From the NCBI GenBank assembly GCA_024762875.1, contig JANTGR010000001.1:1-43337 (forward strand): a stretch of DNA of 43,337 nt. Direction: 5' to 3'. Shown here piece by piece: positions 1-43,337 of the stretch (positions are counted from its first letter, which is position 1; every line of letters starts with the position of its first letter). Both the position numbers and the translations under genes were made by a program. Source of the DNA: Sulfurospirillum sp. GTDB lineage: Bacteria; Campylobacterota; Campylobacteria; Campylobacterales; QNZT01. Under the pieces are notes generated by a model. It ran no database searches and was not told where the DNA came from. It worked only from the letters and a program-made list of their open reading frames with translations.

Positions 1-681
1 TTGATTAAAATGGACAAGTATGTTGATTTGATCATTCCGCGGGGCGGGGAAGGGTTGATCCGTTATGTATCAGAAAATGCAACAGTCTCTGTTGTCAAAC
101 ATGACAAAGGTCTGTGTCATGTCTATATCGATAAAGATGCTGACATTGATAAAGCACTGCCTATCATGATAAATGCCAAATGCCGTCGTGTCGGTATCTG
201 CAATGCCATGGAGACTCTCTTGGTGGATAAAGCGATTGCGACTACGCTGCTTCCAAAAATTGAGGCTGCTTTTGAAAAAGAAGAGACAGAGCTTCGTGGA
301 AGTGCCCAGGTAAAAGAAGTGATTGATATCGAAGCAGCAGAGGAAGAAGACTTTGATACAGAATATCTCGACAATATTCTTTCTATCCATGTTGTAGATG
401 GTGTGGAAGAGGCGATTTCACATATCCAGCGCTATGGTTCTGGACACTCTGAAGCAATTGTGACAGAAAATTATACCTGCGGTGAACTCTTTATGAACAG
501 TATCGATGCGGCATGTGTCTATATCAATGCTTCGACACAGTTTACTGACGGCGGTGAATTTGGTTTTGGTGCAGAAGTGGGTATCAGTACCAACAAACTC
601 CATTCCAGAGGACCGATGGGTATCAATGATCTGACGACCTACAAATACAAGATTTACGGTAATGGACAAGTGCGTTCTTGA
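1..681 (+). CDS. proA: Gamma-glutamyl phosphate reductase, 5'-truncated by window edge
   Basis: Motifs VDLIIPRGGEGL, catalytic CNAMETLL, SGHSEAI, FGFGAEVGIST..LHSRGPMG. Confidence 0.97.
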   Translation: MIKMDKYVDLIIPRGGEGLIRYVSENATVSVVKHDKGLCHVYIDKDADIDKALPIMINAKCRRVGICNAMETLLVDKAIATTLLPKIEAAFEKEETELRGSAQVKEVIDIEAAEEEDFDTEYLDNILSIHVVDGVEEAISHIQRYGSGHSEAIVTENYTCGELFMNSIDAACVYINASTQFTDGGEFGFGAEVGISTNKLHSRGPMGINDLTTYKYKIYGNGQVRS

Positions 682-1265
682 ATATTTTAGAGATCAAAAA
701 TCTAACTTTTGGTTATAAACAGAACCAACTATTGTATGATGATTTTTCACTCTCACTGAAAAAGGGTGAAATTATCTCGATCGTAGGTGAAAGCGGCAGT
801 GGAAAAAGTACACTGTTTGAACTCATCACGGGAGAGCAAATGCCTCTTTTGGGGACGATAGAGAAGTCGCAGATTGCGCAGATCTTTCAAGATCCATACA
901 GCTCTTTTCATCCCTCATTTACAGTACGTGGACAGATAGAAGAAGTAGCTGATACTGCAGATCTGGGGAGTTATCTGAAGAAATTGGATTTAAACCCCTC
1001 ATTGCTGGATAAAAAACCGCATGAACTCAGTGGGGGACAGCTGCAACGCTGTTCTATTTTGCGGGCACTGCTGATGAAACCGGATATTATCCTGGCAGAT
1101 GAACCGACATCGGCACTGGATAACGTTGTGCAGCTTGATGTGATGAAACTATTGGTTGGATTGCTGGATAATGTAGGTATACTGCTTATCACCCATGATG
1201 AAGATCTGGCTGGATGGGCGAGTGACAAAATTGTTAAAATTGGAAACCATCAAGCCATAAATTAA
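678..1265 (+). CDS. ABC transporter ATP-binding protein (short, no adjacent permease)
   Basis: Walker A GESGSGKS, Q-loop IFQDP, signature LSGGQ, Walker B ILADE, H-loop ITHD; TTG start overlaps proA stop. Confidence 0.9.
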   Translation: MNILEIKNLTFGYKQNQLLYDDFSLSLKKGEIISIVGESGSGKSTLFELITGEQMPLLGTIEKSQIAQIFQDPYSSFHPSFTVRGQIEEVADTADLGSYLKKLDLNPSLLDKKPHELSGGQLQRCSILRALLMKPDIILADEPTSALDNVVQLDVMKLLVGLLDNVGILLITHDEDLAGWASDKIVKIGNHQAIN

Positions 1266-1336
1266 ATCTATTGCGAGTTCTGAACAGCCGTTTTACGGCG
1301 CATCCTTAGTGAATAAGTGTATTTGTTCAGAACATT

Positions 1337-2599
1337 CTACTCTTTAAGACGTTTGATTTTGGCACCCAGTTGCTGAAGTTTTTTCTCCAAAGATACATAT
1401 CCACGATCCAAGTGATAGATACGGTGAACTCTTGTTGTCCCGTTGGCAACCAGCGCTGCCAGAACGAGGGCTGAAGAAGCTCTTAGATCTGTTGCCATGA
1501 CATCAGCTCCATTGAGAGAGTGATTGCCCTCAACTGTAGCGATATTGTTGTTCAGTTGAATCACTGCGCCCATACGGGTAAGTTCACTGACATGCATAAA
1601 ACGGTTTTCAAAAAGCCGCTCTTCGATGATAGAAGTACCATCTGCCTGCAGTGCTAAAGCCATAAATTGTGCCTGCATATCTGTTGGAAATCCAGGATAT
1701 TCTGTCGTTGCGATATTGGCATGTAAGATTTTTGCTGAAGGTTTGATGGTGATGCTCTCTTCATGCAGATCAAAATCAAATCCCATCTCTTGGAGTTTGA
1801 GAATAGTGGAAATCAGATGTGAGTGATTTACTTTATTGAGCGTGATTTGAGAGTTGGTAATTGCCCCGGCACATAGATAGGTACCCGCTTCAATACGATC
1901 TGGAATAACCGTAATCTCGGGAATATTGAGTAGTGTTCTGTCACGTCCATGGATGATGAGTTCATCACTGCCTATCCCTTTGATAAGCACACCATGGTCA
2001 TTGAGGATTTCACAAAGTTGCACCACTTCCGGCTCTTTTGCGGCATTGATTATTTTTGTTTCGCCTTTTGCCAGTGCTGCTGCCATGATGATATTTTCAC
2101 TGCCTGTGACAGTGATTTTATCAAAAATAATCGTGGTGCCTTTTAAGCCATCGGGTGCACTTGCGACAACATATCCCTGTTTTATTTCGATATGTGCACC
2201 CATCTGCTCCAATGCTTTAAGATGTAAATCAATGGGTCGCTGTCCGATTGCACATCCCCCCGGCAGTGATACTTCACAATGCCCAAAACGTGTAAGTAAT
2301 GGTCCCAGTGTCAAGATAGAAGCGCGCATTTTACGGACTATGTCATATTTTGCTTCGGTGTTATGCACGGTGGATGCATCTACCGTTGCACAATCATCTT
2401 GATAGGTATACGTAGCACCCAGATTTTCCAATAGGGAGAGCATTGTTTTGATATCAAAAACAGGAGGTAAATTACAGATCTTAACTTCATTTTGGCATAA
2501 AATAGTCAGTGCAAGAATAGGCAAAGCTGCATTTTTCGCCCCTGCAATATCAACCGTTCCTGAAAGTTTGTTTCCGCCTTCTATCTCTAAATAATCCAT
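1337..2599 (-). CDS. murA: UDP-N-acetylglucosamine 1-carboxyvinyltransferase
   Basis: [23 protein letters not shown] (catalytic Cys), [17 protein letters not shown]. Confidence 0.98.
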
Positions 2600-2767
2600 G
2601 ATGTTCCTTAGCTAAGTTAGGTAGATTATAGCTAGAAAAAGATTTAAAGAAGGTATAAAAATTGAAGTTATCATGATAGAAGAAATAAAAGAAGTAAAGT
2701 TAAAAATAATACTGGCTGTTTGAAAGTTAAGGGCGGTTTATCTGCCCGCAAGCCCTACGCTGAGTAG

Positions 2768-2796
2768 TGATTTAAGAGGCTTTGCCTCTAAAATCA
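2768..2796. terminator. Stem-loop just downstream of tRNA-Leu, probable terminator
   Basis: TGATTTAAGAGGC-TTT-GCCTCTAAAATCA, 13-bp stem with one mismatch. Confidence 0.6.
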
Positions 2797-2803
2797 ATTA
2801 AGA

Positions 2804-2890
2804 TGGTACCGAGGGCCGGACTCGAACCGGCACGGTATTGCTACCATCGGATTTTGAATCCGACGCGTCTACCAGTTTCACCACCCCGGC
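2804..2890 (-). tRNA. tRNA-Leu (anticodon CAA)
   Basis: Reverse complement GCCGGGGTGGTGAAACTGGTAGACGCGTCGGATTCAAAATCCGATGGTAGCAATACCGTGCCGGTTCGAGTCCGGCCCTCGGTACCA: 87 nt, long variable arm, GGTTCGA T-loop, encoded CCA. Confidence 0.97.
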
Positions 2891-2894
2891 ATTT

Positions 2895-2937: not shown

Positions 2938-3216
2938 TTATTTTCCAGCTACAGCTTCTTTAAGTTGTTTACCAACTTTGAATTTTACAGCAGTAGTTGC
3001 AGGAACTTCAACAACTTTTGTTGTACCTGGAACTCTAGCAGTTCTTGCAGCTCTTTCAGAAGTTGAGAATGTTCCAAACCCGATAAAACTAACGCTTTTT
3101 TTAGCAACTAATGCTTCTTCGATAGTTGCAAGTACTGCATCTACTACGCTTGAAGTATCTTTTTTAGACAAACCTGTTTTTGAAGCTACTGCATCAATAA
3201 ATTCTGCTTTTTTCAT
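2938..3216 (-). CDS. hup: DNA-binding protein HU (92 aa)
   Basis: MKKAEFIDAVA...FIGFGTFS..ERAARTARVPGT...VKFKVGKQLK; true ATG at 3216 with GGAG RBS, ORF track start is over-extended. Confidence 0.96.
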   Translation of the reverse strand: MKKAEFIDAVASKTGLSKKDTSSVVDAVLATIEEALVAKKSVSFIGFGTFSTSERAARTARVPGTTKVVEVPATTAVKFKVGKQLKEAVAGK

Positions 3217-3377: not shown

Positions 3378-5252
3378 ATGATGCGTGTATTGCAGAGTGG
3401 GATTTATAACAATTTTTTACAAGATCAGGCAAGCGCCAAAGAAAAAATAGATTCTTTGACAAGTCAGATATCATCAGGAAAGAAGATTCAAAACGCTTAT
3501 GAAGATAGTTCTGTCTATATTGATACCTTGAGACTGGATAGTGAAATCAACTCTTTTCAGGGCATCCAAAATCGTACAGAGAAATCAAAAGTCATTACTG
3601 ACTCCAGTGATACAGCGATGAATGATATGGATGTGACACTGATTGATTTTAAGACCAAACTGATTCAGGCAGCCAATGGCACGATGAATGAAGATAATTT
3701 AAGAAGCAGTGCCCAAGAATTGAAACAGATGAAAGAGCACCTGATGACACTGGCAAACAGTTCAATTAATGGTGAGTATCTTTTTTCAGGAACAGCAGTC
3801 AATGTAAAACCTATCGATGAGCTGGGCCATTATCATGGTAATGATAAACCACTAATGACGCAGATATCCGAGAGTGCTACAGCGCCTTACAGTGTAGATG
3901 GAAAATCTCTTTTTATGACTTTTGATGAAAATATCAAAAAATCAGTCAGTACCAATGTCCATCTGCAAAATCAAACAACAGCTGATACAATAAAAAGTGA
4001 TGATACCGTTTATGATTTGCTGGGCAATCATGCTGATGGATACTTTTATCTTGCAGGTGTAAAACATGATGGAGAAGCTTTTAAGTCTAAAATAGCATTG
4101 CCTGAAACGGACAAAATGACAGATCTCTTAGGCAAAATAGAAGATGCCTATGGAGCGGGAACTGTTGTTGCTTCATTGAGTGATGATGGCACTATCATGA
4201 TAGATGACCTGCAGTCTGGAAACAGTAAACTTGATTTTCAAATGACAGCTTCCAATGTTGACAACAATGACTTAAGTGCGATAGCTTCAGGTGATAAAAT
4301 AGCTTTTACCACAACAACAGAGGCAGTTGATGATCGTGCTTCATTTAACAAAAAAGGAAATATTTTAACAGGCAATGTCCCGCTTTTGGCAGATGACGGG
4401 TTTGCTGCCAAAAGTACAAAATTGCGTGATATCGCAGCGCAATCTCTTGATGGAAAACAGTTTTCGATGGATATCACCACTGTCAATGGCACAAATAAAA
4501 CGATACAATTGGATCTCTCTGCTCAATCCTCTTTTACAGTTGACGGCTATAGTTATCATATCTTCAATGCTGATGATACTGCACCGGTCAATACAGATGC
4601 TGATACTATGACACTGGGACAGTTGGATAATGTTATCGCGATGGTGATGTCTGAGACACTGCCGGCTAGTGATGACAAAGCAGGATTTGACACAGCTGTA
4701 AAGGATGCAAAAAATTTGGTTGATGTGGGAATCAACAGCAATGGCGAAATACAGATAGAGGATAAAAGTGGTTTCAATAATGCTATAGCATTTTCACTCT
4801 ATGATCAGGATACCAATGACTACAGCGTCAGCAGCGGTTCACTCTCTTTTATGGGAAACAGTGCTGTTGTGGTCGAGAATCCAAAGATAGATTTTTTTAA
4901 AGATCTGGATACGATTATCGAAGCAGTTGAAGGCAGTATAACCGGTATCAATGCCTCAGGAGTCAATCCCAAAAATCCGGGATTGCAAAGTGCGCTTGCC
5001 AGAATTGACACTTTAAGTAATCATATCTCAAAGATGCACACAAAAATTGGTGCTATGTCAAACAACCTGCAAGCTGCCAATGAAAGAGCCAGTACACTGG
5101 AGTTGAATGTCACAGCCTTGAAATCCAAAGTGGCAGACGTAGATGTCGCTGAAGCAGTGGTACAGTATCAGCAGGTTTCACTAAACTATCAGGCCATGAT
5201 GTCAACAATAGCAAAGGTCAATTCGCTAACTCTTTTAAATTATTTGAAATAA
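3378..5252 (+). CDS. flgL: Flagellar hook-associated protein 3 (hook-filament junction)
   Basis: Flagellin-like N-terminus (QISSGKKIQNAYEDS, LANSSINGEYLFSG) and C-terminus (DVDVAEA...YQAMMSTIAKVNSLTLLNYL); flgL-ftsK order as in Campylobacter. Confidence 0.93.
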   Translation: MMRVLQSGIYNNFLQDQASAKEKIDSLTSQISSGKKIQNAYEDSSVYIDTLRLDSEINSFQGIQNRTEKSKVITDSSDTAMNDMDVTLIDFKTKLIQAANGTMNEDNLRSSAQELKQMKEHLMTLANSSINGEYLFSGTAVNVKPIDELGHYHGNDKPLMTQISESATAPYSVDGKSLFMTFDENIKKSVSTNVHLQNQTTADTIKSDDTVYDLLGNHADGYFYLAGVKHDGEAFKSKIALPETDKMTDLLGKIEDAYGAGTVVASLSDDGTIMIDDLQSGNSKLDFQMTASNVDNNDLSAIASGDKIAFTTTTEAVDDRASFNKKGNILTGNVPLLADDGFAAKSTKLRDIAAQSLDGKQFSMDITTVNGTNKTIQLDLSAQSSFTVDGYSYHIFNADDTAPVNTDADTMTLGQLDNVIAMVMSETLPASDDKAGFDTAVKDAKNLVDVGINSNGEIQIEDKSGFNNAIAFSLYDQDTNDYSVSSGSLSFMGNSAVVVENPKIDFFKDLDTIIEAVEGSITGINASGVNPKNPGLQSALARIDTLSNHISKMHTKIGAMSNNLQAANERASTLELNVTALKSKVADVDVAEAVVQYQQVSLNYQAMMSTIAKVNSLTLLNYLK

Positions 5253-5303: not shown

Positions 5304-7625
5304 ATTTTAAGAGAGTTATTATTTATTTTTGCTGTATTTGTACTGCTTTTTTTGGGGATTTCTACGGTCTTTCCAGATGCACCTATGGTGGGAGCGCTGG
5401 GAACGGCATTTGGGCACTTCAATAGAAACTATTTTGGGCTCATAGGCTTTTTGTATCCATTTTTATTGATTTTTCCTGCTTATTTGATTTATAAAGATAA
5501 TCGCTTGAGTCATGAACTTTCAAAGTTTATGCTGCTTGGACTCTTGATGTTTTTTTCTTTACTGCTGTTTCAGGCAAAATTATTTGATCCTCCGTTTCAG
5601 GGCTCTATCGGCTATGGTACGGTGAGTTTTTTGGATGATTTTATAGGCAATATCGGGATATGGCTTTTTATCATCTCTACACTCTTTCTCTCTGTCACGC
5701 TGATGCTGAATGCTACGATCGAAGATATATCAACATCGATTGTATTAAAGGAGTATTTTGGCGCCTTAAAAGCAAAAGTAAATGCTTTTTTGTTTCCTCA
5801 GGAACAGGATTACATTGATGTTGAGAGTGAAGACTATTATCATGATAAAGATGAAAACCGTTTTGATAAAAACCGCCTGCCAAAAAGTATTCCGATGCAG
5901 GAGATTCCAGATGAAAACCTGGATGATGAAGCTTTGGGGCTGGAGACCATCTCTGATATTTCATCACTATTGCATACAAAAGAGCAGCCAGCACAAAAGC
6001 AGTCTAAACGCGTAGTACCGCTTCCTTTTGAAGAAGATGATGCCAAGCCGCTGGAATTGTTGCAGCAAGAGAGTGCATCACTGCAGAAAGACGTTGTCAA
6101 TCATAGACCCCAAAAACAAACACCAGTGAAGAAAAAACCAACAACCATTGTCAAAGAACTGGAAGAGAATAAAGCACTGCTGCAAAAGCAGATTGATACC
6201 GGTAAAACCAAAAAACCAAAAAATTTTAAATTACCGTATCTTGATTTTTTAAAGTCTGTACCTAAAAGAAAGACACATCATATCGATGAAAGTGAAATCG
6301 ATCAAAAGATTATAGATTTACTGGATAAACTCAAACAGTTTAAAATTGAAGGCGATGTTGTTCGGACGTATTCCGGTCCTGTTGTGACCACTTTTGAATT
6401 CAGACCGGCAGCACATATCAAAGTCTCCAAAATTTTAACCCTGCAAGATGATCTGGCGATGGCCCTAAAAGCTGAAACGATACGTATTCAAGCACCAATC
6501 CCGGGAAAAGATGTAGTGGGGATTGAGATTCCCAACAAAGAGAGTGAAACGATTTATCTTAAGGAGATTTTAGACAGTAAACTGTTTAAAAGTGCTTCTT
6601 CTCCACTGACTTTGGCAGTGGGCAAAGATATCGTGGGCAATCCTTTTATCACCGATTTGAAAAAATTGCCGCATTTACTGATTGCCGGTACAACAGGTTC
6701 AGGTAAGTCAGTAGGGGTAAATGCTATGTTGGTTTCATTGCTCTATCGCAATTCTCCAGATCAATTGAAGTTATTGATGATTGATCCAAAGATGCTGGAA
6801 TTTTCAATTTATAATGATATACCCCATCTTTTAACACCTGTTATCACACAGCCAAAACAAGCGATTGTAGCATTGGCAAATATGGTTGTTGAGATGGAAA
6901 AACGCTATAAATTGATGAGTAAAACAAAGACCAAAAATATTGAAAACTACAATGAAAAAGCGAAAAAAGAGGGTAGGGAAGAATTCCCTTATATCGTAAT
7001 CATTATCGATGAGCTGGCAGATTTGATGATGACGAGTGGCAAAGATGTAGAATTTTATATCGCACGTCTTGCCCAAATGGCACGGGCAAGCGGTATCCAT
7101 CTCATCGTCGCCACACAAAGACCTTCTGTTGATGTTGTGACCGGGCTGATTAAAGCAAATCTTCCCAGCCGTATCTCTTTTAAAGTCGGTCAGAAAATAG
7201 ACTCTAAAATCATTTTGGATGCACAGGGTGCAGAATCACTCTTGGGTCGAGGTGATATGCTTTTTACACCTCCTGGAACCTCAAGTATCATCAGGCTGCA
7301 TGCACCGTTTGTGACAGAAGAAGAGATTGAATCAATTGTTGAATTTTTGAAAGTACAAAGAGAAGTTGTGTATGATCCTTCTTTTTTAAGTGAAGTGAAT
7401 CCTGACGGATCTGTTGTGAGCACGACCAATGGTGGAAATGGAGATTTTGATGAACTTTTTGAAGAAGCTAAAAATGTAGTGTTGACAGATAAAAAAACTT
7501 CTATATCCTATTTGCAAAGGCGATTACAAATAGGATATAACCGTTCTGCAACCATTGTAGAACAGTTGGAAATGGCCGGTGTTCTTTCTGCTCCAAATGC
7601 AAAAGGACAAAGAGAGATACTGTAA
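5304..7625 (+). CDS. ftsK: DNA translocase FtsK (start probably ATT at 5304; first TTG at 5352)
   Basis: N-terminal TM helices, PHLLIAGTTGSGKS Walker A, IIIDELADLMM, ATQRPSVDV, gamma domain SISYLQRRLQIGYNR. Confidence 0.95.
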   Translation: MLRELLFIFAVFVLLFLGISTVFPDAPMVGALGTAFGHFNRNYFGLIGFLYPFLLIFPAYLIYKDNRLSHELSKFMLLGLLMFFSLLLFQAKLFDPPFQGSIGYGTVSFLDDFIGNIGIWLFIISTLFLSVTLMLNATIEDISTSIVLKEYFGALKAKVNAFLFPQEQDYIDVESEDYYHDKDENRFDKNRLPKSIPMQEIPDENLDDEALGLETISDISSLLHTKEQPAQKQSKRVVPLPFEEDDAKPLELLQQESASLQKDVVNHRPQKQTPVKKKPTTIVKELEENKALLQKQIDTGKTKKPKNFKLPYLDFLKSVPKRKTHHIDESEIDQKIIDLLDKLKQFKIEGDVVRTYSGPVVTTFEFRPAAHIKVSKILTLQDDLAMALKAETIRIQAPIPGKDVVGIEIPNKESETIYLKEILDSKLFKSASSPLTLAVGKDIVGNPFITDLKKLPHLLIAGTTGSGKSVGVNAMLVSLLYRNSPDQLKLLMIDPKMLEFSIYNDIPHLLTPVITQPKQAIVALANMVVEMEKRYKLMSKTKTKNIENYNEKAKKEGREEFPYIVIIIDELADLMMTSGKDVEFYIARLAQMARASGIHLIVATQRPSVDVVTGLIKANLPSRISFKVGQKIDSKIILDAQGAESLLGRGDMLFTPPGTSSIIRLHAPFVTEEEIESIVEFLKVQREVVYDPSFLSEVNPDGSVVSTTNGGNGDFDELFEEAKNVVLTDKKTSISYLQRRLQIGYNRSATIVEQLEMAGVLSAPNAKGQREIL

Positions 7626-7667: not shown

Positions 7668-7730
7668 CTTTTAAACTATCATGATAGCATTATAAAGTAA
7701 AATTAAACGATAAACTTATAGGAGAATTTA

Positions 7731-10408: not shown

Positions 10409-10436
10409 TATTCCAAATGGATAGGAGAGTCTTATC

Positions 10437-11384
10437 ATGATAAAAAAGATTCTTCGTATCCTGCTGTCTGTTGTTCTCTTTATTTTTGTTTTGGCTTCAG
10501 GCTTGTATCTCTATACAAAAGCATATCTTCAAGAACAGATTCAAACTCCTCAGCTGCTTTTTATTCCACAAGGCTCTACTAAAAATGCGCTTGCAAAACT
10601 CAAAAAAGATGGTATTGATTTGTACTGGTTTGATTTTTATCTATTAAAACTGTATGGATATCCACAAGCTGGCTGGATTAATCTAGGGGATGAAAATCTG
10701 ACACGGGAACTATTTTTTGAGAAATTGACCCATGCGAAAGCTGCCTTGCAGAAGGTAACGCTTATACCGGGTGAAACAAATGTCATTTTCATGCAGAATG
10801 TGTCACAGCAACTTGATTTAAACTTTTCCAAACTGATGCAGGTTTATACACAATGTGCGCCTTATGATGATGGCGTGATACTAGCAGATACCTACCATGT
10901 GCCGTATGGTATAGATGAAGAAGCATTGGTGCATTATCTTGTAGATGTATCATTATCAAAACAGAGCCGGATTGCTGCAAAATATAACAGTCAGTTTGAT
11001 CGCAAGCAGTGGTTTACCAAAACAGTCACTATAGCTTCTATCATTCAAAAAGAAGCAGCAAATCAAAAAGAGATGCCCATTGTATCAGCTGTCATCCACA
11101 ACCGTTTGAAAAAAGGAATGAAACTGCAGATGGATGGTGCTTTAAACTATGGGAAATATTCGCATATTAAAGTCACTGCCAAGAGAATAAGAGAAGACAA
11201 TTCATCTTATAATACATATAAATTTGCAGGCTTGCCTCCCTCTCCCCTGTGTGCTGTCAGTGAAGCAGCTATACAGGCAGCATTAAAACCTGCAAGCGTC
11301 AATTTCCTTTATTTTGTGAAAGGTAAAAAGGGTACACATATATTTACAAAAACTTATAAAGAACATTTGAAACATATCAAATAA
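10437..11384 (+). CDS. mltG: Endolytic transglycosylase MltG (YceG family)
   Basis: N-terminal TM anchor, IASIIQKEA (catalytic Glu), VIHNRLKKGMKLQMD, YNTYKFAGLPPSP. Confidence 0.94.
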   Translation: MIKKILRILLSVVLFIFVLASGLYLYTKAYLQEQIQTPQLLFIPQGSTKNALAKLKKDGIDLYWFDFYLLKLYGYPQAGWINLGDENLTRELFFEKLTHAKAALQKVTLIPGETNVIFMQNVSQQLDLNFSKLMQVYTQCAPYDDGVILADTYHVPYGIDEEALVHYLVDVSLSKQSRIAAKYNSQFDRKQWFTKTVTIASIIQKEAANQKEMPIVSAVIHNRLKKGMKLQMDGALNYGKYSHIKVTAKRIREDNSSYNTYKFAGLPPSPLCAVSEAAIQAALKPASVNFLYFVKGKKGTHIFTKTYKEHLKHIK

Positions 11385-16152: not shown

Positions 16153-16261
16153 CTATCATGATAGAAAAACTTGCGTGAAAGTCGTCACTTGAGTTGTAAT
16201 AAATGTAAAAGAAGATTGGCTTCTTTGAAAGAAAACCATTAAATTAAAAAAAGGAGATTAA

Positions 16262-31413: not shown

Positions 31414-32692
31414 AAGTAGCAGTAGTGATTTTAAAAATGCGTTTGAAACACTTTTAGCGCGCGGAAAGATGGATATGGCAAATGTCAGCGGCATTGTCGA
31501 AACAATCATTGAAGAGATCCAAAATGAAGGCAATGAAGCTTTAAAAAGGCATATAGACAAATTTGATCACTGGCAAGTTGTAGATGATGATGATTTAAAA
31601 ATCGACACCGTTTCCATGAAAAAAGCATATGAAAATATCGATGAAAAACTCAAAAATGCTTTACATGCAGCGTATGAGAGGATTAAATCCTATCATGAAA
31701 AACAGATGCCGAAATCCTGGCTTGATTTTGAAAAAAATGGTAATGTTTTAGGACAAAAAGTAACAGCGGTTGATAGAGCAGGTCTTTATATCCCTGGTGG
31801 AAAAGCTGCCTATCCCAGCTCTCTTTTAATGAATGCTATACCAGCGATTGTCGCAGGAGTAGAAGAGATTGTGGTCTGTACACCGACACCAGATAATCAG
31901 ATCAATGAACTACTGCTTGCTGCAATGCATCTGTGCGGCATCAAAGAAGCCTATAAAGTAGGTGGAGCAAGTGCCATTGCCGCTATGGCATATGGAACAG
32001 AAACTATCCAAAAAGTGGATGTGATTACGGGGCCTGGCAATATCTTTGTTGCTACAGCCAAAAAAATGGTTTTTGGCGAAGTGAACATTGATATGATTGC
32101 AGGACCTAGTGAAATTGGTATCATAGCGGATCACCGGGCAAATGCAAAATATCTGGCAATTGATCTTTTAAGCCAGGCTGAACATGATGAGATGGCAAGT
32201 TCTATCATGATAACAACATCCAAAGAGAGTGCTGTGAAAACGAAAGATGAAGTGTATCACTATCTAAAAACGCTTGATCGTGAAAAAATAGCCAGAGAAT
32301 CGATTGAGAAGCGCGGGGCTATTATCGTAGTCAAAGATTTAGAGGAAGCAGTTGACTTGATGAATGAGATTGCACCTGAACATTTGGAACTGATGGTAGA
32401 AAATCCCTTTGATCTACTGCCTAAGATCAAACATGCCGGCGCTATTTTTATGGGCTCTTTTACACCTGAACCAATTGGTGACTATATGGCAGGTCCCAAT
32501 CATACCCTGCCAACAGGCGGTACAGCAAAGTTTTACTCACCCCTGAATGTGGAAAACTTTCTGAAAAAATCTTCGATCATTGCTATGAGTGAAAAAGGCA
32601 TCGACGAAATAGGGGATGCTTGTGCGCTGCTGGCAAAAACAGAAGGGCTTGATGCACATGAAAAATCGGTACAGATAAGACTGGATCGATAA
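31400..32692 (+). CDS. hisD: Histidinol dehydrogenase
   Basis: GLYIPGG, DMIAGPSE, SQAEH, APEHL, GPNHTLPT. Confidence 0.98.
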   Translation: MKIIESSSSDFKNAFETLLARGKMDMANVSGIVETIIEEIQNEGNEALKRHIDKFDHWQVVDDDDLKIDTVSMKKAYENIDEKLKNALHAAYERIKSYHEKQMPKSWLDFEKNGNVLGQKVTAVDRAGLYIPGGKAAYPSSLLMNAIPAIVAGVEEIVVCTPTPDNQINELLLAAMHLCGIKEAYKVGGASAIAAMAYGTETIQKVDVITGPGNIFVATAKKMVFGEVNIDMIAGPSEIGIIADHRANAKYLAIDLLSQAEHDEMASSIMITTSKESAVKTKDEVYHYLKTLDREKIARESIEKRGAIIVVKDLEEAVDLMNEIAPEHLELMVENPFDLLPKIKHAGAIFMGSFTPEPIGDYMAGPNHTLPTGGTAKFYSPLNVENFLKKSSIIAMSEKGIDEIGDACALLAKTEGLDAHEKSVQIRLDR

Positions 32693-33284: not shown

Positions 33285-33300
33285 AGGTGCTTACTTTATC

Positions 33301-34524
33301 ATGATAAAAAAATTACTATGGGTGGGTTTTGCAACTTTTTTATTCATCGCCTGTGGCGGGGATAACAGGCACGCAGCTCCTTCATCCCTGCATTTTGATG
33401 TTGAGAGTACAAAGGTCTGTACACAGGCTGGAAAAAACAGATTTGTCTATGATGTATTTAAAGACAGTTACTATTGGGCTGATGAAGTAACTGATGATAT
33501 AAACTTATCTGCTTATGATGATGAAAACTCTTTGATTGATGCTATCAAAAACAGTAAAGACAGATTTTCTTTTGTTTTGGATTTGAAAGATTATGAGTCG
33601 GTATTTGAGAGTGGTGAAAATAAAGGGTTTGGCTTTTTGGCCAGGATGGTACCAGAAGGTGATAAATATATATTTAATGTTATGTTCGTTTACCCTGGTT
33701 CACCTGCTTTTAACGCCGGTGTCATTCGTTCTGATAAAGTACTGTCAGATGAATTAGTAGCTGATAACAACGGCACGGCTACACGCACCTTTCACCTGGA
33801 AAACAGTGCCGGTGTTAAAAGAGATGTTAATATCACAGAAGCTGCTTATGCTATCAATAATATTGCCAATGTCAGCATACTGGATGTTGATCAAAAAAAA
33901 GTGGGCTATTTTGTATTTCAGTCATTTGTTGGAGGTTATACCCTGACACAGCTTGATAATCTGTTTAGAAAATTTAAAACTGCCCAAATCAGTGATTTGA
34001 TCTTGGATCTTCGTTATAATGGCGGAGGTGAGTTAAACGTTGCTGCTCATTTGGGTACTTTGATAGGTGGGGAAAATGTGCAAAAGCATATTTTTCAAAA
34101 CCACCGTTTCAACCCAAAATATGCCCAATATGATTTTAGTACGTATTTTGAGAGTGATATCTCCCAAAGTTTAAATTTGAAACGTGTTTTTATCATCACT
34201 ACACAAGAGAGTGCCAGTGCCAGTGAATCACTTATCAATGCCTTGCGTGCCAGTGATAACCACATGGAAGTGATTACCATTGGAGAGCATACTTTTGGCA
34301 AGCCTTATGGTATGTACACATTGTCATACTGTGATAAAGTTCTCTTCCCGATTCATATCAGTAATGAAAACAGTGATGGCGTAGGGCATTATGTAGATGG
34401 TTTGGCTCCAACTTGTCAAGCCAGGGACAATATCACAGTCAATTTTGCAGATCTGCGGGAAGACAGCCTGGCAGAAGCACTCTATTATATAGAACATCAT
34501 AGATGTTCAAAAGGTTCTGAATGA
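33301..34524 (+). CDS. S41 family peptidase lipoprotein
   Basis: Lipobox FIAC, PDZ-like YPGSPA, LILDLRYNGGG, catalytic SASASE and TFGK. Confidence 0.88.
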   Translation: MIKKLLWVGFATFLFIACGGDNRHAAPSSLHFDVESTKVCTQAGKNRFVYDVFKDSYYWADEVTDDINLSAYDDENSLIDAIKNSKDRFSFVLDLKDYESVFESGENKGFGFLARMVPEGDKYIFNVMFVYPGSPAFNAGVIRSDKVLSDELVADNNGTATRTFHLENSAGVKRDVNITEAAYAINNIANVSILDVDQKKVGYFVFQSFVGGYTLTQLDNLFRKFKTAQISDLILDLRYNGGGELNVAAHLGTLIGGENVQKHIFQNHRFNPKYAQYDFSTYFESDISQSLNLKRVFIITTQESASASESLINALRASDNHMEVITIGEHTFGKPYGMYTLSYCDKVLFPIHISNENSDGVGHYVDGLAPTCQARDNITVNFADLREDSLAEALYYIEHHRCSKGSE

Positions 34525-35992: not shown

Positions 35993-37054
35993 ATGAAAGT
36001 TGCAATCAATTTTAACCAAAAAACAAGCCATGATTATACCGTTTATATCAATGAACTCTCATCGCTTAAATTTGATACAAAAGTGGCAATTATCACCAAT
36101 CCTAAAGTAGCCGGTCTGCATCTAAAAAGATTGCTTTCACTTTTGGAAGCCAAAGAAGTGTATATCATCACAGTAGCTGATGGAGAGTCTTTTAAAAATC
36201 AAAAAAGTGTTGATTTTATTCTTGAAAATTTATTTAATCACAGATTGGACAGAAAGTCTCTTTTGATTGCTTTTGGCGGAGGTGTCATCGGTGATATGAC
36301 CGGTTTTGTTGCATCCATATTTCAACGGGGGATTGATTTTGTCCAAATTCCTACCACACTGCTATCCCAGGTTGATGCGAGTGTCGGAGGAAAAACAGGC
36401 ATCAACAATGCCTATGGTAAAAACCTGATTGGCGCCTTCCATCAGCCAAAAGCAGTTTATATTGAAAGTAGTTTTTTAGAGACATTGCCACAGCGCGAAT
36501 TTGGCGCGGGTATAGCCGAGATTGTGAAGATGGCAGTCACTTTTGACAAAACATTTTTTTCCTGGTTGGAAAAGAGTGATTTACATGTCAAGGCTCATCT
36601 GGCAGAAGCCATCAAAAAAAGTCTTGAAACCAAAGCCTGGGTTGTTTCACAGGATGAAAAAGAGCAGGGACTGCGTGCGGTGTTAAACTATGGTCATACT
36701 TTTGCACACGTGATAGAAAATGAAACAGGCTACAGCCGATATCTCCATGGTGAAGCTGTTTCCATAGGCATGCATATGGCCAACATGCTTGCTTTAAGTT
36801 TAGGTTATTTTACCAAAGAAGAAGTCAAAAGAGTAGAAGCACTCCTGCATCAGTATCACTTGCCTACACGCTACCATATCCGTGATGTTGAAAAGTTTTA
36901 TGAAGGATTTTTCCTGGATAAAAAAACCTATAATGCCACGATAAAATTTATCTTGCCACAAGGATTGGGAAACTTTATCATGATAGAGGATGTCGCAAAA
37001 AAAACGGTTTTAGATGTATTAAGCCGTTGTGGTGAAGATGGAGAAGTTGCGTGA
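35993..37054 (+). CDS. aroB: 3-dehydroquinate synthase
   Basis: [34 protein letters not shown]. Confidence 0.98.
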
Positions 37055-38682
37055 AAAGTTTTTTCTATCTCGGATACTTATTGTTTGCTCTCTCACTTTT
37101 TGGTGCTGATGAAAACCAAAGTACGCAGCCTTCAGAAGAGACGATAGCAAAAAACATCAAATTGATTCAGCAAAAACGCGACGAGGTAAAACAGTTGACA
37201 GACAGTTTAGAGAGTATTGATAACCAACTCAAAAAAAATGTTATGTACGCAAAATACAATAATCATCAAACATATCTGGCGATTGAAAAGCATCTTAATA
37301 AGCTCAAAGCAGAAATAAAAAAAGAAAAAAGTCTGCGTCACAAAAAAAATGTTGCAGAGCTTACTATACAGTATAAATCTTTGGAAAACCAGCTTGATTT
37401 ACTGGGGGATTTTAAAGATGCCCCTTTTTTAGAATTGACCAAACCGGATGATATACCCAAATCACCGGAGATCACATCTCCATTTGATATATTTAGTGGA
37501 TTTACCTATGTAAAACTGCTGAAAAATGCCAAAGAGGAGTATGCCAAAAAATTAAAATCATTATCTAGTCTGATTCATGCTTTGGAAGATAAGGAACGCA
37601 CGCTGCATGCTTTACAGAAAATATTTAAACCTGAGTATGAAAAAGAGAAGATGCAATTGCTGCAAAGCCAGCTCGCAGATGTGATTACGACGTATGATCT
37701 AGCCTCTACTACCAATAAAATCTATCAACAGAAACTGGATGATTCTATCATTCAAACAACAAACAGTATCAAGGAACAGATGAAAAAGCTCTTTAATATT
37801 GCGATTATCATTCTTGTTATTCTGCTCTTTTCATTTATATTGAAATACTTTGCAAAAAGAACCATCAGTGACAATGAGCGTTATTATATGGCGCATAAGA
37901 TTATCAATTTTTCCAATCTCATTTTAATCGCGCTGGTATTGCTTTTTTCCTTTTTAGAAAATGCCACGTATCTCATCACCGTACTGGGTTTTGCCTCTGC
38001 CGGTATCGCCATTGCGATGAAAGATCTTTTTATGAGTTCACTGGGATGGCTGGTAATTGTATTTGGCGGAAGTTTTCATGTCGGGGATCGGGTCAAAGTG
38101 TATAAAGGGGCACACTCTTATGTCGGTGATATTGTGGATATCTCTTTTCTTCGTATGACCATTTTGGAAGATATTACCTTGACAACTTATACTGAAAACA
38201 GAAGAGCCGGGCGCATTATCTTTATTCCAAATAACTATATTTTTACTGAATTACTTGCCAATTATACACATGGGAAAATCAAGACAGTCTGGGATGGTAT
38301 TGATATCATGATAACCTTTGATTCCAACCATAAAAAAGCAACACACATTGTCAGAGAAATCGTGAAAAAATATTCAAAAGGTTATACAGATATATCCCGA
38401 AAACAACTCAATTCTCTCAGAAATCAATACAGTTTGAAAAATATCAATGTTGAGCCACGTATCTATACATTTATCGAAAAATCAGGTATCCGGGTCAGTT
38501 GCTGGTATATGACAAATTCCTATGCAACATTGACTCTTCGTTCCAATATCTCTGCCAATATACTGGATGAGATCAATACAGAACCTGATATCAAGATAGC
38601 CTACGATACACAGATACTCAATCTCAAAAGAGATGCAACCATCGTATTGCCAAAGGAAGAAGATGAAGAAAGTATTTCTTAA
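37051..38682 (+). CDS. MscS family mechanosensitive channel with N-terminal coiled-coil extension
   Basis: Signal-like N-terminus, coiled coil, TM helices, [24 protein letters not shown]. Confidence 0.9.
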
Positions 38683-39904
38683 AACTTTTGGCTGCAGGAC
38701 CAATATTTATGATTCTGCTGTAATGATACAGAATTTGAAAGATTTTGAGATCGTGGACTCTGAAGCGGAAGCGGATATCGTAGTGGTCAATTCCTGTACC
38801 GTAACAAACAGTGCAGACAGTAGTGCACGAAGTTATATCAATGGATTGAATCGGCAGAATAAAAAAGTAATTTTAGCCGGTTGTGGCGCTATCAGTAAAG
38901 GAGAATCTCTCTATCATGATAATAAAATATTTGGATATTTTGGACACTCTGAAAAGAAAAATATCAATGCACTGCTTTTAAAAGAGAAACGTTTTGCCGC
39001 AATAGGCGATCTGCAAAGTGTAGATGAGAATATTGTTGAAGATTTTTCCAGTAAAACCAAAGCCTTTATCAAGATACAGGAAGGCTGTGATTTTCGCTGT
39101 TCTTACTGCATCATCCCTTTTGTACGGGGAGATGCAAGAAGCCAGGATGAAGCAAAAATTCTCTCTCAAATCACTAATCTTGCGGCCAATGGTTTTGGGG
39201 AATTTGTCCTAACGGGGACCAATCTGGGGAGTTATGGTAAAGATAAAAACAGCTCTATTGCGACTTTATTAAAAAAAATATCGTTGATTCCCGGTGTCAA
39301 GCGTATTCGACTGGGTTCACTGGAACCGGTTCAAATTGATGATGCTTTTAAAGAATTGTTAACAGAACCATGGCTGGAAAAGCATCTGCATATTGCTCTG
39401 CAGCATACCAGTGAAGCGATGCTGCGTATCATGCGACGACGGAGCTTTTTGAAAGATGATAGAGTACTTTTTGAGATGATTGCCCAGAAGGGCTTTTCAT
39501 TGGGGACTGATTTTATCGTCGGGCATCCGGGTGAAAGTGCAGCATTGTGGGAGGAGGCACTGGAAAATTTCAAGACCTTTCCTATCACCCATTTACATGG
39601 ATTTACCTATAGTAAACGTGATGGTACACATGCTGCCACACTGAAAGACAATATCAATAAAAGTGTGGCAAAAGAGCGTTTGAAAATTTTAGAAAGTATT
39701 GTGCAGGAAAATAATTTTCTTTTTAGATCAAAACAGCAGTCGCCTTTATTGGTGTTGGTAGAAGAGAATAAAAATGGCTATCAGAGCGGATATGACCAAT
39801 TTTACAATAAAGTCCATATTAAAAGTGATTTACAGCTAGAAAAAGAGTGGGTCAATATCGAGGATTACAGTGTGCAGGAGGATGCAAACTATGCTTCGCT
39901 TTAA
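38663..39904 (+). CDS. mtaB: tRNA t6A37 methylthiotransferase
   Basis: TFGC, NSCTVT, radical SAM CDFRCSYC; ATG at 38663 after AAGGA. Confidence 0.92.
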   Translation: MKKVFLKTFGCRTNIYDSAVMIQNLKDFEIVDSEAEADIVVVNSCTVTNSADSSARSYINGLNRQNKKVILAGCGAISKGESLYHDNKIFGYFGHSEKKNINALLLKEKRFAAIGDLQSVDENIVEDFSSKTKAFIKIQEGCDFRCSYCIIPFVRGDARSQDEAKILSQITNLAANGFGEFVLTGTNLGSYGKDKNSSIATLLKKISLIPGVKRIRLGSLEPVQIDDAFKELLTEPWLEKHLHIALQHTSEAMLRIMRRRSFLKDDRVLFEMIAQKGFSLGTDFIVGHPGESAALWEEALENFKTFPITHLHGFTYSKRDGTHAATLKDNINKSVAKERLKILESIVQENNFLFRSKQQSPLLVLVEENKNGYQSGYDQFYNKVHIKSDLQLEKEWVNIEDYSVQEDANYASL

Positions 39905-41543: not shown

Positions 41544-42054
41544 CGGTTTTTGTTTACATGGAGAAGCTGTACTGTTTGAAGATTTTTTATGCAAAAGTGA
41601 TTTTTGTGTCAGCGGCTTTAGTTTGGGAGCCATTGAAGCATTTGAATATACTGTCAACTCCACTAGGCGCATTGACAGACTACAGCTTTTTTCACCTGCA
41701 TTTTTTCATGCAGCAGAAAATACATACAAAAGAATGCAGTTGCTTTATTTTAAAAAAGATCAAGCACAGTATGTAAAAAATTTTTTAAAAAATGCAGCAT
41801 ATCCCAGTCAGAAAGATTTAAGCAGATTTTATCATGATGACAGTGTAGATAATCTAGGTAAGTTACTCAATTTTCACTGGTCAAAAGAGAAACTGCAAAC
41901 ACTGCTGGATAGGGGTGTTATGATTGATGTTTATCTGGGAGAAGAAGATAAAATTATTGATGCCAAGAAAGCAAAAATATTTTTTAAAGAATTTGCGACA
42001 GTGTATACGCTTAAAAATGCAGGACATATATTACAAAAGGATAAAAATGGATAA
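41530..42054 (+). CDS. bioV: Pimeloyl-ACP methyl ester esterase BioV-like alpha/beta hydrolase
   Basis: FFSGFCL, nucleophile GFSLG, LFSPAFF, D and H (GEEDKII, AGHIL). Confidence 0.78.
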   Translation: MLFFSGFCLHGEAVLFEDFLCKSDFCVSGFSLGAIEAFEYTVNSTRRIDRLQLFSPAFFHAAENTYKRMQLLYFKKDQAQYVKNFLKNAAYPSQKDLSRFYHDDSVDNLGKLLNFHWSKEKLQTLLDRGVMIDVYLGEEDKIIDAKKAKIFFKEFATVYTLKNAGHILQKDKNG

Positions 42055-42574
42055 AATTAAGATAGGTATAGTCACAGCTTCAGATAGGGCAAGTCAGGGA
42101 ATTTATGAAGATATATCAGGTATGGCAATCATTGAAACCATGAAGGCTTATCTGGAAAATGATTTTGAAGAAATATATCGTTGTATTCCGGATGAGCAGG
42201 ATCTCATTGAAAAAACTCTGATTGAACTCGAAAAGATGGGTTGTGCCCTGATCGTAACAACAGGTGGAACAGGGCCTTCACTGCGTGATGTCACACCGGA
42301 AGCGACGGAAAATGTTTGCCAGAAAATGCTGCCTGGTTTTGGAGAGTTGATGCGGCAGGTCAGTTTACAGTATGTACCGACTGCCATTTTATCACGTCAA
42401 AGTGCCGGAATCAGAAACAAAAGCCTTATCATCAATCTTCCTGGTAAACCAAAATCAATCCGAGAGTGTCTGGATGCTGTTTTCCCGGCTGTGCCATACT
42501 GTATCGATTTGATAGAAGGACCTTTCATGGTTTGTGATGAAAAAGTGATCAAAGCGTTTAGACCGAAAAAATAA
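42047..42574 (+). CDS. mog: Molybdopterin adenylyltransferase
   Basis: TASDRAS, TTGGTG...RDVTPEAT, NLPGKP; ATG at 42047 after AAGGA. Confidence 0.96.
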   Translation: MDKIKIGIVTASDRASQGIYEDISGMAIIETMKAYLENDFEEIYRCIPDEQDLIEKTLIELEKMGCALIVTTGGTGPSLRDVTPEATENVCQKMLPGFGELMRQVSLQYVPTAILSRQSAGIRNKSLIINLPGKPKSIRECLDAVFPAVPYCIDLIEGPFMVCDEKVIKAFRPKK

Positions 42575-42642
42575 AGGGCACATCAACTTATTTTTAGTAA
42601 AGAAGACTATAATAGATAGTACACATTTTATAAGGAGTTATT

Positions 42643-43089
42643 ATGGGTTTTATGGATTTTTTCAAAGATGCCGGTAAAAAATTACTGGGTAAAGGTGATG
42701 ACAATGAAGTCGTCAAAAAAGAGATCGAAGCACATCAGGATACGATGCCGATAGACAATCTGGATGTCGCGGTAGAAGGTGATACTGTGACCATCAAAGG
42801 TAATGCCAAAAATGCTGAAGATCGTGCAAAAGCAGCATTGATCGCCGGTAATATAGAAGGTATTTCAAAAGTCAATGTTGAAGATGTTTCCCTCGAAGAT
42901 GACAGTGCGGAAATTCATGATATCTATTATGAGATTCAAAAAGGTGATACACTCTGGAGAGTCGCTGACATATACTACAAAGACGGTTCACGTTATCCTG
43001 AAATTGTAGCAGCTAACAAAGAAGTCATCAAAGATGCGGATTTGATATATCCGGGACAAATGATTCGTATTCCTAACTTTACAGCATAA
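42643..43089 (+). CDS. BON-LysM protein (Kbp/YgaU-like)
   Basis: MGFMDFFKDAGKKL, BON domain with GNIEGI, LysM KGDTLW...IYPGQMIRIP. Confidence 0.9.
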   Translation: MGFMDFFKDAGKKLLGKGDDNEVVKKEIEAHQDTMPIDNLDVAVEGDTVTIKGNAKNAEDRAKAALIAGNIEGISKVNVEDVSLEDDSAEIHDIYYEIQKGDTLWRVADIYYKDGSRYPEIVAANKEVIKDADLIYPGQMIRIPNFTA

Positions 43090-43107
43090 GGTAAGCGAGT
43101 CTATTTT

Positions 43108-43133
43108 CCAGCGCTAATTTTCTTTAGCGCTGG
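43108..43133. terminator. Bidirectional terminator between BON-LysM gene and valS
   Basis: CCAGCGCTAA-N6-TTAGCGCTGG between convergent genes. Confidence 0.8.
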
Positions 43134-43139
43134 TTGCTA

Positions 43140-43337
43140 TCATGATAGACTTTTTAATTCACTCTCTACTTTTTCCAGTTTGACTTTGGCATTGTCAAGT
43201 TGTGCCCTGTTCTTGGAGAGTACATCTGCCGGTGCATTGGCGACAAATTTTTCATTGCTTAGCATACCGTTTAATTTGCCCAACTCTTTTTCCAGTTTTA
43301 TTTTTTGTGCATTGAGCCTGTCAATGATGGGCTGGAT
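43140..43337 (-). CDS. valS: Valyl-tRNA synthetase C-terminal coiled coil, 5'-truncated by window edge (not in ORF track)
   Basis: Hand translation IQPIIDRLNAQKIKLEKELGKLNGMLSNEKFVANAPADVLSKNRAQLDNAKVKLEKVESELKSLS*; L.NE.FVANAP is the ValS tail motif. Confidence 0.93.
   Translation of the reverse strand: MQPIIDRLNAQKIKLEKELGKLNGMLSNEKFVANAPADVLSKNRAQLDNAKVKLEKVESELKSLS

Follow-up and report, generated by a model that had tools for sequence, protein, structure and literature searches.

A CATG-centred palindromic word iterated throughout the genomes of one Campylobacterales genus

The palindrome in the window and in its genome

The window is the whole stretch of 43,337 nucleotides analysed here, from Sulfurospirillum sp. 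(Campylobacterota, Campylobacterales; assembly GCA_024762875.1, contig JANTGR010000001.1). It forms the start of contig C1 of the assembly labelled G000, which has 2,279,523 bases in 213 contigs (largest 124 kb) and is 89% complete. The window carries a flagellin-like gene, ftsK, acnB, fumC, sucC and other genes, and within and between them the 10-base palindrome TATCATGATA is repeated. This palindrome is very probably a real word of the highly iterated palindrome (HIP) type, which acts at the DNA level and is specific to the genus of the window.

The window contains 18 exact copies of TATCATGATA, compared with a mean of 0.10 in 100 dinucleotide-preserving shuffles (largest 1), none of which reaches 18. 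In 16 of the 18 copies a pyrimidine precedes and a purine follows the word, which gives the 12-base form YTATCATGATAR (the exceptions are at 27911 and 38304). The initial annotation of the window, made from its letters, had listed 18 starts and 16 extended copies; all the starts were recovered at the same coordinates and the flanks agree. Its estimate of about 100-fold enrichment is too low, as the shuffles give about 180-fold, and the GC content of about 36% that it assumed lies slightly below the 39.1% of the genome (0.35-0.41 per 4 kb in the window). With at most one mismatch allowed, 29 matches are found versus 3.03 expected. The five one-mismatch variants listed initially are all present, but the list was incomplete and six more occur (6810, 23743, 24094, 25495, 38589 and 39067). 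All copies are collected in Table 1, in which G001 and G002 are the other two genomes of the genus.

Table 1. Exact copies and one-mismatch variants of the palindrome in the window, with their gene context and their state in the other genomes of the genus.
Feature	Coordinates	Context	Remarks
Exact copy cTATCATGATAa	162..171	inside 5'-open ORF 1-681, frame I-M-I	kept at aligned position in G001 and G002
Exact copy tTATCATGATAg	2669..2678	intergenic, ORF 1337-2599(-) (EPSP-synthase fold) / ORF 2938-3474(-)	not kept in G001; unaligned in G002
Exact copy	4193..4202	flagellin-like gene 3378-5252(+), frame I-M-I, variable mid-protein	kept in G001 and G002
Exact copy	5838..5847	ftsK 5352-7625(+), frame Y-H-D, linker part	kept in G001 and G002 despite differing flanks
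Exact copy	7677..7686	intergenic, ftsK (end 7625) / acnB (start 7731)	kept in G001 and G002
Exact copy	10433..10442	central ATG (10437) is first start codon of YceG-family ORF 10437-11384(+)	kept in G002
Exact copy	16154..16163	2 bases past fumC stop (16152), upstream of sucC (16262)	kept in G001 and G002
Exact copy	22420..22429	ORF 21926-23290(+), frame I-M-I	not kept in G002 (5 of 10 aligned bases differ)
Exact copy	23484..23493	ORF 23287-24297(+), frame I-M-I	
Exact copy	27911..27920	FIST/histidine-kinase gene 26622-28604(+), frame I-M-I	3' flank C, not 12-mer form
Exact copy	28586..28595	near 3' end of FIST/histidine-kinase gene 26622-28604(+), frame I-M-I	
Exact copy	30904..30913	ORF 30559-31413(+), frame Y-H-D	
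Exact copy	32203..32212	ORF 31385-32692(+), frame I-M-I	
Exact copy	33297..33306	central ATG (33301) is first start codon of ORF 33301-34524(+), 13 bases past preceding ORF stop (33284)	
Exact copy	36976..36985	ORF 35993-37054(+), frame I-M-I	
Exact copy	38304..38313	ORF 37051-38682(+), frame I-M-I	5' flank A, not 12-mer form
Exact copy	38912..38921	ORF 38633-39904(+), frame Y-H-D	
Exact copy	43138..43147	intergenic, downstream of ORF 42643-43089(+)	
One-mismatch variant TATCATGGTA	3831..3840		
One-mismatch variant TATAATGATA	6810..6819		
One-mismatch variant TATCATGAAA	13802..13811	ATG (13806) is first start codon of malate-dehydrogenase ORF 13806-14756	
One-mismatch variant GATCATGATA	23743..23752		
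One-mismatch variant TCTCATGATA	24094..24103		
One-mismatch variant TATCAAGATA	25495..25504		
One-mismatch variant TATCATGACA	27036..27045		commonest variant class genome-wide (190 copies)
One-mismatch variant TATCATGAAA	31691..31700		
One-mismatch variant TATCAAGATA	38589..38598		
One-mismatch variant TATCAAGATA	39067..39076		
One-mismatch variant TATCATGATG	41830..41839		

The assembly as a whole contains 1028 copies of TATCATGATA (0.45 per kb), which occur on each of the 40 largest contigs listed, and the word and its overlapping 10-mers occupy the top of the list of the commonest 10-mers. With the motif masked, Markov models of orders 1-5 predict 5-25 copies, and the over-representation is about 40-200-fold. 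A maximal-order Markov model, on the other hand, predicts 998 copies, which at first sight favours an artefact of short k-mers. This match is circular, because most copies of ATCATGAT (1028 of 1311) and many of TCATGA (1028 of 2120) are the motif itself.

Open reading frames (ORFs) were called with a crude longest-ORF procedure that takes the first start codon as the start (2170 ORFs, 91% of G000). The copies are located inside ORFs (767), between them (161) or at their boundaries (100). The intra-ORF copies are read in two frames and on either coding strand, whereas the frame that contains stops (YTA TCA TGA TAR) is never used inside ORFs. With this caller, which makes counts at starts and stops approximate, 81 ORFs start at the central ATG of the motif and 40 end at its TGA. 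The 767 copies inside ORFs compare with 128-188 after synonymous-codon shuffling within genes (20 runs) and with 5-15 after shuffling of codon order (10 runs). The tripeptide I-M-I is spelled ATCATGATA in 492 of 544 cases, although the Ile codons are ATC in 45% and ATA in 24% of cases, and Y-H-D is spelled TATCATGAT in 353 of 402. The tripeptides themselves exceed the amino-acid expectation 4.6-fold (I-M-I) and 11-fold (Y-H-D). The bias in codons and tripeptides therefore indicates that the word is imposed on the DNA and alters both codon choice and protein sequence; it acts at the DNA level. For the annotation of these genomes, the word accounts for the excess of both tripeptides and for the context of many starts and stops. 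The initial annotation had named two outcomes that would undo its reading, an excess confined to the window and an excess that vanishes when codon usage and short k-mers are preserved; neither is observed.

The bases next to the word are also biased, with C (542) or T (345 of 1027) at position -1 and G (541) or A (358) at position +1, and farther out the composition is near background. The unit is therefore the 12-mer YTATCATGATAR, which belongs to no longer repeat. A repeat element of the repetitive extragenic palindromic (REP) or miniature inverted-repeat transposable element (MITE) type was rejected, as the copies share no body or flanks beyond -1/+1, and repeated DNA of at least 300 bases and at least 90% identity amounts to only 1165 bases in G000. 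The one-mismatch variants total 701, fewer than the 1028 exact copies, and the inner positions are the strictest.

After masking of the motif, no second iterated palindrome appears in G000 under Markov orders 1-5. The top non-palindromic words overlap into AGCCTTAGTGA / TCACTAAGGCT (66-88 copies versus 12-28 expected) and may belong to a different dispersed element. Three hexamers are under-represented, GTCGAC (32 versus 134 expected), GGGCCC (14 versus 44) and GTATAC (178 versus 462), a pattern expected from restriction avoidance.

Distribution among lineages, conservation and placement

The sample comprises 401 genomes of the order, i.e. the 3 genomes of the genus and 398 others; the family of the window (f1) is represented by 32 genomes, 29 of them outside the genus. 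The three genomes of the genus contain 1028, 1236 and 1549 copies of TATCATGATA. The highest number among the 398 others is 166 (G062, from another family), followed by 93, 73 and 51, and the rest have at most 45. The 80 related loci that match the isocitrate dehydrogenase of the window (Sulfurovum, Sulfurimonas and related metagenome-assembled genomes (MAGs), at up to 87% amino-acid identity) hold one copy in total, and 79 of them have none. The survey of related Campylobacterota proposed in the initial annotation thus finds the hyper-abundance in all three genomes of the genus, to which it is specific.

The genome G062 (single-contig, genus g39 of family f23) has a weak form of the same word. 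A 40-kb sample of it (L156-L157) contains 5 copies together with 13 copies of ATCATGAT, the genome carries a 61% identical homologue of the methyltransferase described below, and the five other sampled genomes of its genus have 12-28 copies.

A sister word is abundant in other families. TTACATGTAA is likewise a 10-base palindrome centred on CATG and was found first in two related loci (L069 and L025), whose genomes G403 and G404 hold 1175 and 913 copies. Both words have the form T-WW-CATG-WW-A and differ only in the dinucleotides that flank CATG, AT/AT in TATCATGATA and TA/TA in TTACATGTAA. At least 200 copies of TTACATGTAA are present in 28 of the 401 genomes, which belong to four genera of f23 (g30, g64, g71 and g91) and two of f16. 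Thirteen genomes have 900-1500 copies; many f23 genomes have 913-1496 and some f16 genomes 145-589. Within f23, the range is 49-1496 in genus g30 and 5-21 in genus g39. The genus of the window has 1-2 copies.

Two further candidate dialects were rejected because their copies, 30 of GATCGATC in L012 and 16 of GTTGCAAC in L011, recur in local tandem arrays at periods of 300 and 525 bases; the whole genome of L012 has only 87 copies of GATCGATC. The arrays themselves are long (about 300 bases in 30 units at L012:41-8739, 525 bases in 16 units at L011:451-8326), lie upstream of icd in Sulfurovaceae MAG chromosomes and are presumably giant repetitive genes. Another word, CGACGTCG, is dispersed within locus L078. 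A scan of viral contigs for two copies of the palindrome 3-30 bases apart gave 38 loci and no phage of this genus. The copy-rich viral loci are a satellite of about 171 bases (L194 and L206) or repetitive coding sequence (L192 and L196), and have no similarity to G000. In the satellite, from IMGVR_UViG_3300005573_000082, nearly every listed unit contains TATCATGATA with a near-copy 16 bases upstream, and 32 copies occur in 16 kb.

The genomes of the genus are about 75% identical in DNA, and the samples compared cover 320 kb of the 2.5 Mb of G002 and about 17 kb of G001. Five of the six window sites that align to G001, and six of the seven that align to G002, are kept with differing flanks. Where G002 aligns with G000, over 175,726 bases at 74.6% identity, half of the G002 motif sites (59 of 118) are identical in G000, compared with 7.7% of all aligned 10-mers; in the reverse direction, 59 of 85 sites of G000 are identical in G002. 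Around kept sites the identity is that of the background (range 0.52-0.91, mostly near 0.7); the exceptions are positions -1 and +10 (0.86 and 0.83). The word is kept in place between species. The partners of the 59 non-kept sites are skewed to 4-5 differences (26 of 59; among background windows that differ at all, the share is 23%) and differ mostly by substitution: of the 30 commonest variant strings listed, 5 show gaps. It follows that a new copy is made through several directed substitutions rather than through an insertion.

The density of the word depends on the region. It is highest in spacers between convergent genes (2.19 copies per kb), followed by tandem spacers (1.29), divergent spacers (1.09) and ORFs (0.37). 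Among aligned 600-base windows, the least conserved quartile has 1.02 copies per kb and the most conserved one 0.23 (Spearman -0.35, p = 5e-8). Copies in coding parts of the window fall in poorly conserved protein regions: of five such copies tested, three could be aligned to none of the 80 outgroup loci and the other two to a single locus each. Among the longest motif-free stretches of G000, those inspected consist mostly of rpoBC, the ATP synthase operon, a ribosomal-protein operon, genes for cbb3 oxidase and IF-2, and an AcrB-type pump; the word is likewise missing from a nif-like cluster and from a type III CRISPR-Cas contig. The idea that these stretches are foreign islands was dropped, since most are conserved housekeeping operons and constraint accounts for most of them. 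The word is limited by protein constraint.

Two of the motif-free regions have features of their own. For the type III CRISPR-Cas-like contig G000:C80 (8.9 kb; L215), which encodes two RAMP-family proteins, the genome average predicts about 4 copies and none is present; this DNA may be a recent acquisition. The AcrB/AcrD/AcrF-type transporter at G000:C4:16417-19721 (L150:4329-7633) consists of two abutting ORFs of 543 and 557 residues that cover profile positions 2-504 and 526-1016; the gene is split or frameshifted, or else the transporter exists as two pieces.

The spacing of copies is near random, with a coefficient of variation (CV) of 1.06 versus 1.00 +/- 0.03. Gaps longer than 8 kb number 15 (about 9 expected), and 40 copies lie 13-50 bases apart (about 23 expected). 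Of the 44 pairs less than 60 bases apart, about one third lie outside genes, roughly half of these in spacers between convergent genes. Two nearby copies of a palindrome form a perfect hairpin.

A probable CATG methyltransferase and the search for other components

G000 encodes one D12-class adenine methyltransferase of 333 residues, which adjoins a SelO-like gene, with no endonuclease next to it. The gene lies on contig C98, in agreement with the initial annotation, which saw no trans-acting factor in the window. Orthologues in G001 and G002 are 77-78% identical, and the one in G002 has the same neighbourhood. The methyltransferase gene of G000 itself holds one copy of the word, read Y-H-D (L091:2133-2142), and the homologue in G404 holds two copies of TTACATGTAA.

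Direct searches did not name the enzyme: NCBIfam gave only a sub-threshold RsmD match, PDB sequences gave no match and the homologue search gave generic names. A homologue 59% identical over the full length is found in single-contig genomes of 1.5-1.7 Mb (Helicobacter pylori type) of the order, where its neighbours are a hexapeptide acetyltransferase and genes that match Pfam 'ICEA' or 'Helicobacter pylori IceA2'. The names hp1208 and hpyIM presumably designate the same gene. According to excerpts of PMC13340068, iceA adjoins hpyIM, a homologue of the NlaIII methylase, and a title cited there calls hpyIM 'CATG-specific'. Excerpts of PMC3936762 report N6-methyladenine (m6A) at 99.7% of CATG sites, produced by M.HpyAI, the product of hp1208. 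Because its homologue sits at the iceA-hpyIM locus, the enzyme of the genus is, by sequence, very probably a CATG methyltransferase of the M.HpyI/NlaIII family. The centre of the word is then probably the methylation site of this resident orphan methyltransferase. A methylome paper that mentions TCATGA was set aside as irrelevant to the specificity of the enzyme. The tie to a CATG/TCATGA methyltransferase that the initial annotation had suggested stands in part: an orphan enzyme, probably of the CATG family, is present in all three genomes of the genus, but it is also present in genomes without the word.

The methyltransferase has matches in 156 of the 401 genomes, although many of those in f12 are 34-37% identical and are probably other D12 enzymes. 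Homologues with 45-54% identity occur in 12 of the 13 genomes richest in TTACATGTAA (at least 900 copies). A match is found in 19 of the 28 carriers of TTACATGTAA and in 134 of 370 other genomes, which is an association only, as the genomes are related and not independent.

Other components were sought with a single query each. In G000 no PF01555 protein was found and C5 methyltransferases gave no match; a Vsr-type partner was not searched for. A type I-like N6_Mtase occurs in carriers and non-carriers alike. Secretin is present in 32 of the 32 genomes of the family and ComEC in all five genomes searched. The machinery for DNA import is present, which is permissive evidence only. The top-ranked literature matches on competence in these genera contain no report of it. 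The gene-content correlate that the initial annotation had proposed to seek was not obtained, as no family searched separates carriers from non-carriers.

Possible roles of the word and comparison with known systems

The force that acts on this palindrome of 10-12 bases works at the DNA level, has a direction and maintains the word. The initial description as an undescribed HIP-like system agrees with these data: the word is genome-wide, genus-specific, imposed on DNA and kept in position between species, and no paper naming it was found. The literature search, which had subscription journals and supplements outside its reach, returned neither TATCATGATA nor TTACATGTAA as a genome-wide word and no iterated palindromes or uptake sequences in Campylobacterota. 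The top-ranked matches to the strings TATCATGATA, TACATGTA and TTACATGTAA are, by their titles, unrelated uses.

The reading preferred here, tentatively and with somewhat less than even confidence, is that YTATCATGATAR may be a tag for the uptake or recombination of self DNA. A sequence-specific cellular process would spread the word by point substitution wherever proteins and signals tolerate it, and the same process would subsequently guard it against decay. The word, with its CATG adenines probably methylated, would be bound by a putative dimeric protein that takes part in DNA uptake or recombination. Word-bearing fragments of own-kind DNA would be taken up or recombined preferentially, and word-bearing alleles would displace word-free alleles (molecular drive), so that the word becomes a self-DNA tag. 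The outer bases (TAT...ATA in this genus and TTA...TAA in the sister lineage) would be set by the putative reader and not by the methyltransferase. Precedents exist for several of these steps. Campylobacter jejuni imports only DNA methylated at RAATTY (excerpts of PMC10046745), transformation of a cyanobacterium rises more than 100-fold with methylated HIP1 (bioRxiv 10.1101/2024.09.10.611283, in part), and HIP1 was recently proposed as an uptake signal, with a correlation to type IV secretion systems (T4SS) (excerpts of PMC13756078).

A wider form of this proposal is more doubtful. It supposes a family of CATG-centred, methylation-linked self-tags with lineage dialects in sulfur-oxidising Campylobacterales, which would be read in the methylated form by a fast-evolving dimeric receptor and favour exchange with the own kind. 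The dialects would be TATCATGATA in the genus of the window, TATCATGATA again, weakly, in one genome of another family, and TTACATGTAA across f23 and f16.

Several observations weigh against the self-DNA tag. We know of no uptake sequence that is a palindrome. The methyltransferase is not sufficient: its family occurs in 16 of the 32 genomes of f1, and 13 of these, among the 29 outside the genus, have no word (one, G016, has a 35%-identical D12 type); the H. pylori-type genomes have the enzyme and yet not the word. With this query it is not strictly necessary either, as 9 of the 28 genomes with at least 200 copies of TTACATGTAA give no match. The methyltransferase therefore cannot be the whole system. 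No reader protein was found, in that none of the families searched (PF01555, C5, N6_Mtase, VirB4, secretin and ComEC) separates carriers from non-carriers. ComEC and secretin are equally present in relatives without the word and do not discriminate, and a VirB4-type secretion system is found in none of the 32 genomes of the family, so that nothing here corresponds to the T4SS correlation reported for HIP1. The ORF calls are crude, as noted for the start and stop counts. Finally, conservation in place and depletion in conserved genes are equally expected for a selected array of protein-binding sites or for biased repair, and these two alternatives fit the conservation and constraint data about as well as an uptake tag does. 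Both are nevertheless disfavoured, mainly because the distribution is uneven and follows constraint, and because no m6A-linked mismatch process is known.

The first of these alternatives, considered unlikely, is an array of binding sites for an abundant dimeric nucleoid or chromosome-organising protein, with each site kept by selection. A perfect palindrome of 10-12 bases suits a dimer, half of the G002 sites (59 of 118) are kept in place with conservation limited to the word, and, in PMC5861425, Xu et al. argue from like evidence that HIP1 serves nucleoid structure. The copies, on the other hand, are spaced nearly at random and give no even coverage, with an excess of gaps longer than 8 kb. 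Their density tracks protein constraint over a four-fold range rather than chromosome position. The sites of matS, SlmA and Noc number tens and not about 1000, and no candidate protein was found.

The second, judged improbable to a similar degree, is that the word is a functionless by-product of biased mismatch correction or gene conversion tied to CATG methylation (very-short-patch-like), which would convert near-matches and repair decayed copies. The predominance of exact copies over one-mismatch variants, the excess of partners with 4-5 differences that a directional force predicts, the probable site of the resident methyltransferase at the centre and the accumulation inverse to constraint all agree with such a process. 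The absence of a C5 methyltransferase match in G000 (89% complete; Vsr-type partners lay outside the search) speaks against it, m6A at CATG gives no known mismatch, and the same methyltransferase family occurs in many genomes without such a word. A process that reads 10-12 bases would still need a specific reader. In addition, Xu et al. took the conservation of HIP1 between species as evidence against such replenishment (excerpts of PMC5861425).

It is very unlikely that the word is primarily a gene-expression signal, in which it would provide an ATG start, a TGA-TAR double stop on both strands and, in paired copies, bidirectional terminators. The 81 starts and 40 ends at the motif (in the window 10437, 33301 and the variant at 13806), the density peak in convergent spacers and the hairpin-forming close pairs between convergent genes are what this role would produce. 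The bulk of the copies (767 of 1028), however, lie inside ORFs in two frames and on either strand, and each start was called simply at the earliest start codon of its ORF. Where an ATG or TGA already exists, 3 of the 10 bases are in place, so that a force at the DNA level would by itself predict an excess at starts and stops. These uses look like secondary co-option, as is familiar from the paired uptake sequences of Neisseria and Haemophilus. An artefact of composition, codon usage or short k-mers, or remnants of mobile repeats, can be dismissed as extremely improbable: the one agreeing figure (998 versus 1028) is circular, the masked Markov models and both kinds of shuffle fall far short of the counts, the flanks are near random with 1165 repeated bases in the genome, and the word is common to three genomes.

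If the self-DNA tag is correct, the word would define barriers to gene flow among abundant sulfur oxidisers of vents and sediments, and would make it simple to improve the efficiency of transformation in organisms for which genetic tools are now lacking. If the wider family of tags is real, it would be the first uptake-sequence-like system in Campylobacterota and an independent second HIP1-like instance, with two specificity variants. The onset of the word is narrow (one genus versus 29 sampled relatives of the family) and the sister dialect occurs in closed single-contig genomes. Genes that accompany the word, or that distinguish the two dialects, can be sought directly.

The word corresponds to none of the motifs with which it was compared, as the initial annotation had stated: it is not HIP1, an asymmetric uptake sequence, RAATTY or a site of the matS/SlmA/Noc class. 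Polar chromosome words (Chi, KOPS) are excluded, since a palindrome reads alike on both strands. Organisation sites of the matS, SlmA or Noc type were also set aside, as they number tens in one domain and the 1028 copies are spread over the contigs.

The DNA uptake sequences (DUS) of Neisseriaceae and the uptake signal sequences (USS) of Pasteurellaceae are non-palindromic and are read unmethylated, by a pilin or by a receptor that is still unknown. The word shares with them, as they are generally described, a density of about 0.5-0.7 per kb and lineage-specific dialects, the confinement to tolerated frames and to less conserved parts of proteins, the enrichment downstream of genes with hairpin-forming close pairs, and the excess of exact over one-mismatch copies. 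It differs in being a perfect palindrome without the asymmetry of these sequences.

The RAATTY system of C. jejuni belongs to the same order, and m6A placed by the orphan methyltransferase CtsM decides the import of DNA (excerpts of PMC10046745). RAATTY is a degenerate 6-base motif, common by chance and not reported as iterated in those excerpts of PMC10046745, whereas here a word of 10-12 bases is amplified about 100-fold. The enzyme of the genus probably belongs to the M.HpyI/NlaIII family rather than with CtsM.

To our knowledge, HIP1 (GCGATCGC) has for about 30 years had no function that is generally accepted, and all studies of it concern a single phylum. Like TATCATGATA, this cyanobacterial word is palindromic and hyper-abundant, lies within and between genes and is kept between species. 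The traits of HIP-type words found for TATCATGATA are a genome-wide excess of a palindrome, occurrence in and between ORFs that is not driven by peptides or codons, and conserved sites. HIP1 is 15-300-fold over expectation (excerpts of PMC5861425) and contains the sites of two orphan DNA methyltransferases (PMC4390886, in part); the centre of TATCATGATA is likewise probably the site of an orphan methyltransferase. The differences are also clear. TATCATGATA occurs in another phylum, has another sequence and extends over 10-12 bases instead of 8; it is AT-rich with a CATG (probably m6A) centre, compared with GATC and CGATCG in HIP1. It is restricted to one genus, whereas HIP1 is found in most of a phylum, and its family has no VirB4-type T4SS in the genomes searched. 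At short range, the scale covered here, its spacing is near random; the periods of HIP1 are 10-90 kb. Because sequence and phylum differ, TATCATGATA is an analogue of HIP1 and not a member. That it works like HIP1 and like uptake sequences, by an uptake or recombination tag, is a plausible but tentative analogy. A second and unrelated instance, with another sequence and another class of methyltransferase (probably m6A at CATG), makes the question of HIP1 a comparative one.

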